Assembly (NCBI GenBank): GCA_964016885.1
Contig: OZ024741.1
Location: 129,952,001-130,016,000, forward strand
DNA from: Eledone cirrhosa
Taxonomy: Eukaryota
Direction of reading: 5' to 3'
Length of the DNA: 64,000 nt
Shown here: positions 47,151 to 52,100 of the stretch, piece by piece
Numbering within the stretch: the first letter of the stretch is position 1
How the letters are laid out: the number at the start of each line of letters is the position of its first letter
Translations under genes and position numbers: made by a program
Notes under the pieces: model-generated
Told to the model about the DNA's origin: nothing
Seen by the model: only the letters and a program-made list of their open reading frames with translations
The model's database searches: none

Positions 47151-47384
47151 GTTATTATTATTATTATTATTATTATTGGCGACCTACGTAGGAAATCGTA
47201 TCATCGTGAGCTCCGCAAAGGTTTGTTATTTCCGTTTGTTAAAAATTGCCATTTATGGAAAATTTTATTGTTAACTGTTTATAAGCACACATACATTGTT
47301 TTCCGAAAAGGACACCCAAAAAGATTGGGGCCTTGTGCCCAAAATTTTAACTTTTATTATTATCCAAAAATTTCTTTGAAAAAA

Positions 47385-49066
47385 ATGGCTAATTCCCCTC
47401 TGCACGAAGCAGCTGAAAGCCTTGCTCACAAAATAACACCTCACACCGACACCACCATTGTAAATGTTACTACGTTTGCCAACACAAAAAAAAATATAAG
47501 CAGTAGCAATATTTTAAATTTGTCTCAGGCAGACATTCATTTCCCGCCATTACCAATGACTGCAGGTGTTAAAGCCTCCACCACCACCACCACCGCGACA
47601 ACCACCACCCTCACCACCACCGCGACAACAGAAACAAAAGAAGAAAAAAATAAATTAACTCGTGATGTCGAAATGAAATCAAGCAAAATGGACTCTTCCG
47701 CACCAAAGACGACTGACGTCACCACCACCACAACTGAAACTAAAATTAAGATTAACATAAATAACGATAGCAACAACAACAACAATGACATTATAAAACC
47801 GACCCTCAGTTTCGCCATCGTAGCAAAACAATTCGAAGCGTTCACACTCGTCCCAAGCTATTGTGGCCAGAGACTCGTAAAGATCAGGGTGACCCACGTT
47901 CCACCGGCCATCGAAATTCCCTGGCTAATAGCGGCTGTCCTCGCCGGCATCGAAGCCAACACGAAAATAATAGCAATAGCAAAAGAAAAGCAGGAAAACT
48001 GGTCCGGATCTGGGATGGAGCTCCTGATCCAAGCGGACCAAAAAAGCATTGAGGAGATCCCAGAGGTAATAGACCTCACTGACGGCAGCCACCTCACGGT
48101 AATTGTCGAGGGCAGAAGACCTAGGTGTGTCGTTTGTGGTGAAGGAACCCACCTAAGGGCTTTCTGCCCTCAGGCTAAAAGGTTGAGGCCACCTCTCCTA
48201 CCCACCCCAGTGACACAACCATCAACACCACCAGTAGCAGAGATGGCAGCAACAACTGTAGCAGCAACAACAGAAGCAACTATAACAGCAACAACCCCAG
48301 CAACAGTAGCAAAACCAACACCACTACCACCACCAGCAAAACGAACACCACCACCACCCAACGCTTCAGAACTAGCACCAGCGCCTACACCATCCAACGC
48401 ACCACAACCAAAACTAACGCCTGTGGAGGATTTTCCACTCCCCGGCCTATCACAACTGGAGACAGATTGTGACGACGAGGAGTGGGAAACGATATCCGGA
48501 AAAAAAAAAGAAACCAAAAAAGAAAAAATTCTCTTCCTTCCCCCTCCAAAAACAAAATACAGAGGGAAACAAATAAACTAAGAAACAAAAAAGTTAGGAC
48601 AGATATGCCACCACCCACACCAGCATCACCAACCCCATCAACCCAAACACCAACACCATCACCATCATTAACTCCAACACCACCATCACCTACACCACAA
48701 AAGTCACCAAAAAGCGAAACAGAAACAAACCCACAACAAACGCAAACAAAACAAAACAACCAAAACGATACACACTACACAGCATTAAATTTGAACAACA
48801 AGCAATTATTACACTACATCCAACACAACACCAGCATCACAGAAAAAGACTACACAACAACCCCAAAATTCACACCACCTCCACACATACAAATCACTCG
48901 CATCACACAGAAAACGTACATGACACTTAAACAAAAATTCCCCAAAGACATCGGAGATTTCCGACAAACACTCTCCAGGAGGATTTATAAGGACATCCTT
49001 CCTGAGGAGGCCACAAGCAGTGAAAAGGATGGAAAAAACGTCCTTCCCCTACGAGAAGTAAGGTAA
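47385..49066 (+). pseudogene. Copy D ORF1, internal deletion and frameshift
   Basis: CVVCGEGTHLRAFC knuckle. LVPSYCGQ motif shared with B. Confidence 0.85.
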
Positions 49067-49100
49067 GTGGTCTTTCCCATCTTTTCCACTCCTTTTCAAC

Positions 49101-52100
49101 ATGACCTCACTCAGAATAGGCAGCATAAATGCGCGTGGCTTGGGGTCGTCATGGAAGCAGGGCCACCTGCTCAACGACGCAGGTCACTAAACATAGATGT
49201 AGTGGCCATCAGCGAGACCAGAATCTCCGAAGCACAGGATTTCGCACCGATCTTCGGCGGCTACGATGTGTACGCATCTCAAAGCCGTCCGGGATCGGGG
49301 GGAGGAGTTGCTGTGCTTTTTCGGAGAGGTTTGTATCTTGCCATACGGGCCATCTTCCTGGACCCAGAAGGTAAGTTGGTGGTGCTGGACGTGACCAGCG
49401 GAGACGGGCAAGCTTTCAGGTTAGTGGCCGTCTATGCCCCGACAGGAGCAGGGCGGCCTGATTTCTTCCGGCGTCTGGAGACCTTTCTTGGAACGTCCCG
49501 CTCTTTAGTGTTAGTGGGCGACTGGAACGGGATCTTAGATGCACGCTGGGATTGTGTGGGATTAGTGGATAGGGAAGGAGGGTGAAAGAGTCTCACCAAT
49601 CTGCTCAGACGTTTTGAACTGTCTGACAGGTACCGAATGGATTTCCCGAATGTACCAATGTGGACTTGGACAAATCGCATAGGGTCATCCAGATCATATC
49701 TAGATAGAGTATTTTGTAGGGAAATAGATAGGTCTAGCATAGGCTGTCCACAATTCAAGATAGTCAGCTACACGGACCACAAATTCGTGATCTGTGTGCT
49801 TGACTTAGATAGGCTTCATAGAGGAGGACCCGGCTACTGGAAGCTAAACGCGTCCTTACCAGCGCGCAAGGCCTACAGAGACCGGATTAGCTAACTAGTT
49901 AAGCTGGCGTTGACGGGGGCCATCGTCAACAACAAGTGGTGGTTTGCTCTGAAAAGAGCAATTAGAATAGAGTCCATTAGGTTTAGTAAGACTTTAGCAA
50001 TAGAGAAAAATAGAGCAGAGGGAGAATTAGAAAATTAGATGAGGCGCTTAGCAAAGGCATCGCGACCGACGTACTTGCGGCGAAATTGGCCCTTGACCAA
50101 TTCTTCAATGCAAAGCACGAAGGCTGCGTTGTCAGAGCTAGGGTGCGTGCTCTCAGACACGAGGGGACGAAAGCCGTTCAATGGGCCCGAGTGGCGGAGG
50201 CGCGTCGTGGCAACAAAGCCACGATCCGGTCTTTGGTGGACCACGACGGGCGCATGCTACTCGATCCCGGGCAAATGTGTGAAGCTTTTCAGCGACACTT
50301 CGCTCAACTGTTCGGGGGCAGTGGCGGGCCGGATCGAGGGATGGACTTTAGTGTCTACCTCGACGGACTGCCGCGGCTTTCGGCCACTGAGGCGGAGTGT
50401 TGCGAAAAGCCGATAACAACCGCTGAAGTACGGGATGCAATGACTAGTTGCACAAGGGGTAAATCGCCTGGTTTGGATGGTCTGCCCTATGAACTTTACG
50501 TACAAATGCCAAACTTGTTCGGAGGCCTCTTGGCGGACGTCTACTGCAACTGGCAACAGAACGGGAGAATTCCCAGCTCTGTGAGCCGAGGAGCGGTGGC
50601 GCTGCTGAGAAAGGATCCGAACAAGGGGGATAACATAGATAATTTTAGGCCCATAACTCTGCTAAATACAGAGTTCAAGATTTTGGCCAAGGTGCTAGCA
50701 AAGAGGTTGGCGCTTGTCGTTGGTGGTCTGGTGGGAGAGGCACAGACATGCGCCATTCCCGACAGATCTATCCACGAGAACCTCCACCTCATGCGATACA
50801 TCGTAGAGAGGGTAGCTAGGGAACCTGGCAAGGGTGGGTCTTTGATCAATTTAGATCAATCGAAAGCCTTCGATAGGGTCGACCTTCGTTACCTAGCGGC
50901 AGTCCTGAGGGCGGTTGGCTTTGGGCCCGTCTTCAGAGGCTGGATCGCTGCCATGCACAGCGACATCTGCTCTGTAGTGAGAGTGAACGGTCACCTTTCG
51001 GAACCGTTCAACATCATGCGCTCGGTCCGCCAAGGATGTCCCCTCTCGTCCCTATTGTACGTATTGACTCTCGAGCCATTACTGCACAAACTGGAGACGT
51101 TGAGGGGTGTCCCGCGCGAACTAGGATGCGGAAGATCCATGTCAGCATATGCGGACGATGTCACCGTAGTGGTGTCGAACGCCAAACACATCGAGGCGAT
51201 CGGCACTACACTAAGAGAATACGAAGCGGTGACAGGAGCAATGATCAACCAGGAAAAGTCAGTGGGCCTGCAGCTCGGCACCTGGAGAGGCAGGTCCATG
51301 CCGTCCAAGAGCGTCGTCGGGCGCTGGACGGACGGACCGGTTAAATTGCTAGGGGTCTGGTTCGGTCCAGACCTCCAGACGGACAAAAACTGGGACGAGG
51401 TGACGAGCAGGGTGGCTTCTCTCACCCAGAAATGGGCCGAGAGGAAGCTATCCCTGAAAGGTCGAGCGGAGGTGGCGAATGCGTACATCGCATCCGTCAT
51501 CTACTACCGCCTGACCGTCGTACCTTGTCCTAAGCCCCGCCTGACTGCGCTGGAGCGTTTGCTCTTTCGCTTCTTGTGGAAGGGACGCGCTCCGATGGTC
51601 AGGCGGTCCATCTGCTGTCAACACCCGCTACGTGGAGGGCTGGGCATGCCGTGGCTGATGATGCGCAGACACGCGCTCAGGCTACGACATCTCCACCTCT
51701 TCCTCGACGGTGATCAGGTGTGGTCGCCGTTTGCTAGACACGTTTTTCCCCAGCTCGTCTCCTTGACGGAACTGCAGTCCTGGGTCAAGCGAAGACCGAG
51801 AGGGAGCGCTTGGAGGCTGGAATGTCTTCAGGCGCTCACAGCCCTCGACCAATCGGGCAATGTGATCGGTGGAAACTCCACCTTGGCGTTCTATAAGGGA
51901 TTAGTGGAGGGGAAGAGCGACGACGTACTTGGAGAAACTCTAGGCGTCGATGAAAATCAACTAGCCAATCTCTTCGGAAGGACTTTCTGGCCGGGGCCTA
52001 TGGACAACTTCCAGAAATCCCTGGCCTGGCAGTGCTACCGAGGAGCTTTGCCAGTTCGGGATAAACTCTACAGGCATGGAGGTGCCGTCAGCCGGGCATG

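Follow-up and report, generated by a model that had tools for sequence, protein, structure and literature searches.

Three full-length long interspersed nuclear elements (LINEs), here called B, C and D, lie on the + strand of a 64,000-nucleotide (nt) stretch of the Eledone cirrhosa genome (contig OZ024741.1, positions 129,952,001 to 130,016,000; hereafter the window, with positions counted from its first letter). B and D share almost the same second open reading frame (ORF2) and 3' untranslated region (UTR) behind first open reading frames (ORF1) and 5' UTRs that have strongly diverged. Exchange of 5' modules between ORF2s, in some form, is very probable. We favour, by somewhat better than even chances, an origin of the B/D mosaic through recombination near the end of ORF1, either by a template switch of the reverse transcriptase (RT) or by unequal exchange between neighbouring copies. 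Each of the three elements (B at 17541-23515, C at 23546-29181 and D at 47178-52760) has an (ATT)n tract at its start and another at its end, and all three are disrupted by stops or frameshifts.

By blastn, B and D formed a single block of 3785 columns with 95.35% identity (19762-23545 against 49019-52790), in agreement with the first-pass annotation of this DNA, which had described an almost base-for-base match from the ORF1 end onward. Upstream of the block, just short pieces of at most about 70% identity and low-complexity matches were found. By segment, 36 of 38 letters were identical in the spacer between a splice-donor-like GTAAGT motif at the ORF1 stop and the ORF2 ATG, and identity was 96.0% in ORF2 and 93.1% in the 3' UTR. 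The two ORF1s could be aligned as three protein blocks (LVPSYCGQ, W..knuckle and the C-terminal KFP..GDFR; 195 codons) with 50% amino-acid and 59% nucleotide identity, as the protein motifs picked out by eye had suggested. The shared tract starts at 19762-19764 in B and 49019-49021 in D, about 43 nt upstream of GTAAGT (GT at 19807 and 49063), and not at the splice donor, where the transition had originally been placed. In this upstream stretch, 36 of 48 columns are identical between B and D, and at three of the differences contigs from other runs carry the letter of B.

Silent sites separate the two parts sharply. In the ORF1 blocks, the proportion of synonymous differences (pS) is 0.73 (95% bootstrap interval 0.63-0.82) and that of nonsynonymous differences (pN) 0.32, whereas in ORF2 the values are 0.089 (0.072-0.108) and 0.022, with ORF2 divergence alike across 8 bins (0.044-0.14). 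Four-fold sites differ at 28 of 37 positions in ORF1 versus 35 of 548 in ORF2 (Fisher p 9e-23). Both ORFs are under purifying selection: the nonsynonymous rate (dN) in ORF1 is 0.41 and the synonymous rate (dS) above 2, giving dN/dS below 0.2, and dN/dS in ORF2 is 0.24. Because ORF1 silent sites are saturated, fast protein evolution is excluded, and the history of the 5' module differs from that of ORF2. In the main ORF2 block, the three codon positions hold 18/15/63 differences (13/9/44 at non-CpG sites); this third-position excess, present also outside CpG, indicates that B and D go back to different source elements under selection and did not arise by local copying. In a tree of 21 ORF1 rows, from which 8 further proteins were omitted as the knuckle pattern did not match them, the ORF1s of B and D are nearest neighbours (support 90/89).

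Contigs from four other runs bear on the D side of the mosaic. All four cover the D-type 5' module in every bin (30 of 30). With 10 differences, X4 contig 13 runs from 48604 to 49091, which takes it 73 letters into the shared tract and 29 beyond the GT; X7 contig 30 covers 48803-49058. The join between the D ORF1 and the shared tract is thus present outside this assembly as well. The D-type junction is bridged in these two runs, whereas the B-type junction is known from the window alone. Of the 12 places listed downstream from 49038, 11 have the letter of B and not that of D in the other runs, so that part of the B-D distance reflects decay of this D copy, and the tract in B was not copied from this D locus. 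Among the joints listed from these contigs when aligned to D (15 of 365), none was at the donor. Summed contig depth dropped upstream of the ORF2 start (about 1000-fold in X7, about 2-fold in X1); it is no measure of copy number, gives no ranking of the parts and was not used.

The same pattern recurs in intact elements. A scan of a genome collection yielded 65 loci (L078-L142), 64 on contigs of one record labelled as a bacterial metagenome-assembled genome and 1 from another record. At these loci, intact LINEs are arrayed head to tail; their ORF2 (endonuclease) identity to B is 42%, and the contigs are likely mis-binned eukaryotic (host) DNA. The arrays occupy 15 contigs with a period of about 6.4-6.9 kb, and neither poly(A) nor simple repeats separate the units. 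After 12 loci were set aside (11 near contig starts and the 1 from the other record), 53 were examined, and both ORFs were intact in 32 of these. Units with identical or nearly identical ORF2s carry very different ORF1s: at four-fold sites, L107 and L120 differ at 0 of 609 ORF2 positions versus 95 of 193 in ORF1 (ORF1 62% identical), L083 and L089 at 0 of 605 versus 90 of 172, and L078 and L079 at 5 of 602 versus 70 of 206. ORF2 type I (at least 99% identity) is found with either ORF1 type, a or b, and the two alternate within 3 of the 15 contigs; the chimeras are multi-copy. Trees of the ORF1 core and of ORF2 for 11 intact types conflict, and the approximately unbiased (AU) test rejected the groups of the other gene in 6 of 6 cases (all p<0.002, from 0.0015 to 1e-65), for groups named after the pairwise table had been seen. 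The ORF1 core is constrained here too, with dN/dS of 0.06-0.20 in six pairs with finite dS; in the seventh pair dS is saturated. Thus, both in synonymous divergence, compared in B and D, and in tree topology, compared in the relatives, ORF1 and ORF2 part company, and the proposal that ORF1 cassettes are exchanged on a common ORF2 is supported.

Switch points in the relatives lie, relative to the donor, at about -73 (two pairs), -123, +105, +500 to +600 and -1180 nt. All are collinear, and no duplication was seen in the last 120 nt of 10 aligned rows. Such scattered, collinear switch points argue that the exchange is recurrent and follows homology rather than the donor. Four units (L126, L124, L110 and L134) have hybrid ORF1s, type a at the 5' side and type b at the 3' side, with the switch near the knuckle (about -1180). 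Searches for an RNA gene, Rfam match or tRNA target in the relative loci scanned (5 and 6 loci) found none.

Taken together, the lineage would behave as one recombining pool. The ORF2s would stay similar enough (>90%) for free exchange, and the old 5' UTR-ORF1 modules may have drifted so far apart that switches concentrate where homology runs out, at the conserved end of ORF1. Targeting of the element to its own tail would place copies head to tail, as B and C in the window and as the long arrays of the relatives, and this arrangement would favour exchange.

The direction of the exchange is suggested by a double ORF1 tail in B. Downstream of the FP..VG motif, ORF1 has 36 residues in C, D and three database ORF1s (P0006, P0054 and P0122), 26-34 in four others (31 in P0004) and 53 in B and P0002. 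B runs gap-free beside the D tail (43/81 nt) up to PSPDDQ, and a second, D-like tail follows; when the D tail peptide was placed along B, the two tails were the best 2 of 109 ungapped positions (scores 20 and 23, next 11). Given that B carries its own ORF1 tail (19688-19763, ending in PSPDDQ and G) as well as the D-like one (19764-19806, 14 extra codons), B is probably the recombinant, with a B-type 5' module and a D-type 3' part, although the evidence from the tails is modest. After PSPDDQ the B-type sequence breaks off with CAAG (19760-19763), no more than one codon away from where ORF1 usually stops (PEGK in C, PDQGK in P0004 and PEGKS in P0006, in C as a phase-1 donor G|GT AAG T). This CAAG presumably marks the site of the former ORF1 end and donor of B. 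The junction has AAG on the B side and CAG on the D side, in a weak acceptor context.

Several points weigh against recombination near the ORF1 end as we have described it. The B junction is non-collinear (14 extra codons and a one-base offset), unlike the junctions of the relatives, and it coincides with the presumed donor, so that a splice-linked origin fits it at least as neatly. P0002 also has a 53-residue tail, which may reflect a spliced gene model, or long tails may not be special. The relatives, coming from contigs of one record, amount to one independent lineage, and their arrays have no (ATT)n spacers. The evidence from the host itself consists of three full-length copies, one of them the B-type chimera, a form that may or may not have multiplied. 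Finally, exchange at the DNA level and switching by the RT are not distinguishable from these data. The predicted proteins P0002, P0031, P0069, P0088 and P0109 combine this ORF1 with unrelated sequence, and P0002 changes character at the glycine where C has its donor; these fusions are either gene-model artefacts or cases of exonisation.

The alternative that survives best, which we consider possible but hold to only tentatively, is a splice-linked chimera, in which the ORF1 of B was joined at its own donor to an AG within a D-type ORF1 tail and the product then retrotransposed. This could come about by cis-splicing of a read-through transcript across head-to-tail copies, by trans-splicing or by a jump of the RT onto a free 5' exon. 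That the B-type sequence stops, with CAAG, no more than one codon from where ORF1 usually ends fits this route, as does the start of the D-like tract after CAG; the last 150 nt of ORF1 in D contain just 2 YAG ends. The donor motif is conserved, head-to-tail neighbours exist (B-C), and chimeras of exons with LINE-1 that end at donors are known (10.1101/2025.02.02.635956). However, this is a single junction, the former donor of B is inferred rather than seen, and D is rich in purines around the acceptor, where further AGs lie a short way upstream. The shared AG could be ordinary microhomology, and the last 150 nt of B contain 9 MAG (A or C, then AG) ends, and the junctions of the relatives are collinear and away from the donor. 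Spliced L1 insertions in humans are, moreover, mostly dead ends (PMC5860796).

A bolder extension of splicing, which we regard as doubtful, would make it a routine of the lineage: the 5' UTR and ORF1 would be built as an exon whose 3' end has retained a U1 site in very distant animals, and from read-through transcripts of head-to-tail copies the spliceosome would pass this exon on to the ORF2 of another family and create viable new families, of which B would be an example caught in the sequence.

Nested insertion is unlikely. Here, a 5'-truncated D-type copy would have entered the ORF1 end of a B-type element elsewhere, and the hybrid would have been transcribed from the B promoter and retrotransposed into the present site. 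This route has been proposed for ORF1 shuffling in Jockey-group LINEs (PMC4120745), and it accounts for the non-collinear junction. However, all three full-length copies have (ATT)n directly in front, a sequence that accounts for 153 of the 64,000 bases of the + strand, and the junction has no such tract; moreover, behind B there is no native B-type ORF2, as C follows with its own 5' end, so that the event did not take place at this locus.

We consider a local artefact, that is, an assembly chimera or DNA gene conversion between loci 29 kb apart, to be quite improbable. The B junction is, admittedly, known from this assembly alone, but the 4.6% difference between B and D, with the ORF2 dN/dS and third-position excess given above, is unlike a recent, neutrally decaying local copy, and the agreement of the other runs with B, the bridged D junction and the recurrence of the pattern in intact relatives all speak against it. 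Least credible is the other possibility raised by the first-pass annotation, an ORF1 evolving extremely fast under host conflict with no exchange at all: ORF1 is A/C-rich with low-complexity linkers and very diverse in octopods (171 representatives at E<=1e-10, including a few poly-knuckle proteins), but its silent sites are saturated while amino-acid change is constrained, relatives with 0 four-fold differences in ORF2 differ at half of those in ORF1, the two topologies conflict, and ORF1 alone would have to differ more than 20-fold in mutation rate. Host conflict may nonetheless lie behind the retention of old ORF1 modules.

G|GTAAGT stands at the ORF1 stop in B (ACG|GTAAGT, 19804-19812), C (AAG|GTAAGT, 25648-25656) and D (AAG|GTAAGT, 49060-49068), in D resembling a 5' splice site and overlapping the stop. 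Motifs of the GTAAGT type are complementary to the 5' end of U1. The relatives carry AAGGTAAGT in 64 of 65 loci, which count as one lineage, the exception being the degenerate L141. Among sites scoring at least 6/7, the motif is the sole one in B (5977 nt) and one of 3 each in C and D. As a control, we used a second metagenome scan, which gave 77 distant LINE loci (22-43% identity, judged RTE-like by eye); in the 56 kept after duplicates and loci with less than 110 nt upstream were dropped, no site of this score was found near the estimated ORF2 start, and one occurred in 1 of 202 control windows. The stop lies just before the motif in the relatives, overlaps it in B and D and follows it in C, and these three phases point to selection on the RNA rather than on the protein. 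From the donor to the ORF2 ATG there are about 10 nt in the relatives and a spacer of 39 nt in B and 38 nt in D. As a general rule, a short intron that would run from donor to ORF2 start and yield an ORF1-ORF2 fusion was rejected, since at about 10 nt from the ATG the motif of the relatives cannot open a short intron ending there; among 150 ORF1 matches, no ORF1-ORF2 fusion was found, bar one 176-residue chimera. The conserved G|GTAAGT probably binds U1 or acts as a splice signal in the control of expression, rather than being the routine breakpoint. By analogy with Ty1/Copia elements, it likely serves to make an ORF1-only RNA or to protect from early termination. A conserved donor at the ORF1 stop of LINEs was not found reported in the open-access literature searched, and the available sections of PMC12129022 and PMC13534243 hold nothing on such a donor or on ORF1 exchange. 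A second donor-like AAA|GTAAGT lies about 50 nt into the 5' UTR of some relatives (at about 1787 in L107, with equivalents in the units behind L120, L083, L089 and L078), and, by eye, these units also show a small hairpin immediately upstream of the ORF1 ATG, its stem differing between them.

The 5' UTRs of B and D had been called unalignable by eye. They are indeed strongly diverged, but they are remotely related: among 500 dinucleotide shuffles, none attained the global B-D score (z 3.5) and 3 reached the local one. A GGG..CCC hairpin precedes the ORF1 ATG in B, C and D. The 5' UTR of D (47178-47384, hairpin at about 47321-47348) is nearer to that of C (23546-23755; local z 8.2) than to that of B (17541-17755; 3.3), though the ORF1 of D is nearer to that of B, which is a possible sign of a further exchange.

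B is preceded by an (ATT)8 tract (17516-17539) that forms the tail of a repeat, presumably like a short interspersed nuclear element. Its ORF1 (17756-19810) retains both RRM-like domains and is disrupted at about 18260 and about 18660-18690; ORF2 (19846-23265, 1139 codons) has a single internal stop at 22003, and the 3' UTR with its (ATT)10 tail (23266-23545) is directly followed by C. C (from 23546 to 29181 or 29199) is a more distant relative placed head to tail behind B, with 73-79% nucleotide identity to B and D in ORF2 and an ORF2 gap of about 170 nt at about 27280. D is preceded by an (ATT)8 target tract (47154-47177). Its ORF1 (47385-49066) is of type I, with RRM-RRM-CCHC knuckle, a low-complexity linker and a C-terminal domain, and has a frameshift in an A run near 48500. 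About 110 residues between the SFA motif and LVPSYCGQ are missing, so that D lacks the first RRM-like domain (site of the gap, of about 312 nt, at 47839-47841); an X7 contig has 313 extra letters at 47839/47841 and X1 has loose ends at the same place, which makes the gap appear private to this copy and not a trait of the family. The second RRM-like domain and zinc knuckle follow (47844-48170), and the last approximately 15 ORF1 codons occupy 49019-49062, the tract shared with B beginning around CAG|TGAAAA (49018-49026). ORF2 of D (49101-52515; APE endonuclease, RT and zf-RVT) has a frameshift at about 49177, a stop at 49583 and a frameshift at about 50030, and its 3' UTR (52516-52796) has AATAAA at 52749 and an (ATT)12 tail. 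Of the 6 tracts of (ATT)5 or longer on the + strand of the window, 5 flank B, C or D.

Further members of the group are incomplete. The 3' part of a fourth, more distant relative (71-72% identity to B and D) lies at 1-1735 and ends in an (ATCT)n and not an (ATT)n tail; short 3' fragments were found at 60910-61074 (-), 38644-38839 and 63701-63752. Other repeats include a 12-kb array of a 128-bp ACC-rich unit (4556-16500) and a 1.4-kb (ACC)n-like tract (36500-37900), both of which yield long low-complexity open frames. An inverted repeat of about 750 bp with 95-98% identity (55869-56704 and 57210-57967) resembles a foldback element or a miniature inverted-repeat transposable element. Beside (ATT)n, 3' pieces of another non-LTR (long terminal repeat) element, presumably Dong/R4-like, lie at 45039-45599 (-) and 46352-46972 (-) with a weak zf-RVT match (E 0.01), and an inverted pair of RT-bearing fragments flanked by inverted repeats (29857-31600, +, and 33300-34575, -) is presumably Penelope-like.

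B, C and D are L1/Tx1-type (L1 superfamily) LINEs inserted in (ATT)n. In ORF2, the Pfam domains Exo_endo_phos, RVT_1 and zf-RVT scored above cut-off, and the best solved relative is human L1 ORF2p (E 9e-41; R2 5e-21). The modelled ORF1 core of C (predicted local distance difference test score 94) finds tandem RRMs as best folds (E 5e-6), placed before the knuckle; zf-CCHC scored above cut-off in the relatives L107 and P0054, and in the window there is a weak zf-CCHC_4 match in C (E 0.33). The 3' ends of all three elements have AATAAA followed by (ATT)n, and all three start behind (ATT)n, a small sample; with (ATT)n on both flanks, a target-site duplication cannot be delimited. No named Tx1 reference was present among 73 ORF2 matches. 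The named ORF1 relatives looked up come from Octopus sinensis, O. bimaculoides, O. vulgaris and Argonauta. Two word-index searches with the ORF1 of D returned nothing, and a profile search found relatives; a first metagenome scan and a viral scan for relatives were empty.

In this LINE lineage, many old RNA-packaging modules, comparable to the alleles of a hypervariable locus, share a single young enzyme gene. Such sharing breaks repeat annotation based on a single consensus, and age estimates with it. It also provides natural matched pairs, with identical ORF2s and different ORF1s and promoters, in which to ask what maintains the diversity of ORF1 and the 5' UTR. The conserved donor motif at the ORF1 stop is a possible way to set the ORF1:ORF2 ratio, a form of control for which we found no description in LINEs in the open-access literature.

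The closest precedent is mouse L1, where the 5' part (UTR, ORF1 and ORF2 start) of one lineage sits on the ORF2 of another in the Tf and Gf families, with independent breakpoints and models of template switch or heteroduplex (PMC3600994). As there, the 5' module and ORF2 are of different ancestry, but in the present elements the silent sites of the exchanged ORF1s have reached saturation (B and D are about 50% identical in protein), the switches often lie inside the ORF1 end, and several ORF1 types stand on identical ORF2s in arrays; many saturated ORF1s on identical ORF2s were not found reported in the open-access literature searched. In CR1/L2 LINEs, ORF1 evolution is reticulate, with structurally different ORF1 types moving between old clades (PMC4120745). 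Whole ORF1s moved between lineages while ORF2 was conserved in both cases, whereas in the present lineage the reassortment is among homologous type I ORF1s, inside a single young pool of ORF2s. The Tx1 families Kibi and Koshi target the microsatellites (TC)n and (TTC)n (PMC4494074), L1-Tx1 families are listed for Octopus vulgaris (PMC13282606), and a type I ORF1 fits Tx1 (PMC5203782). The elements of the window share with Kibi and Koshi an APE and RT ORF2, an RRM and CCHC ORF1 and insertion into simple repeats, but their target is (ATT)n, and they are candidate members of the Tx1 clade. Ty1/Copia elements have a conserved U1-type donor near the gag-pol border, for which splicing and early termination were demonstrated (PMC5580714); the position at the border between structural and enzymatic genes is the same, but those are LTR elements, whereas the putative donor of the present LINEs is a sequence motif. 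In spliced integrated retrotransposed elements (SpIREs) and exon/LINE-1 chimeras, spliced or chimeric LINE RNA was retrotransposed with junctions at donors (PMC5860796; 10.1101/2025.02.02.635956); these join host exons or delete parts of the LINE, whereas B would join two LINE families with both ORFs kept. Thus, exchange of the 5' part and ORF1 is already known for LINEs from mouse L1 and CR1/L2, and what appears new here, by the literature searched, is its extent and the conserved donor.

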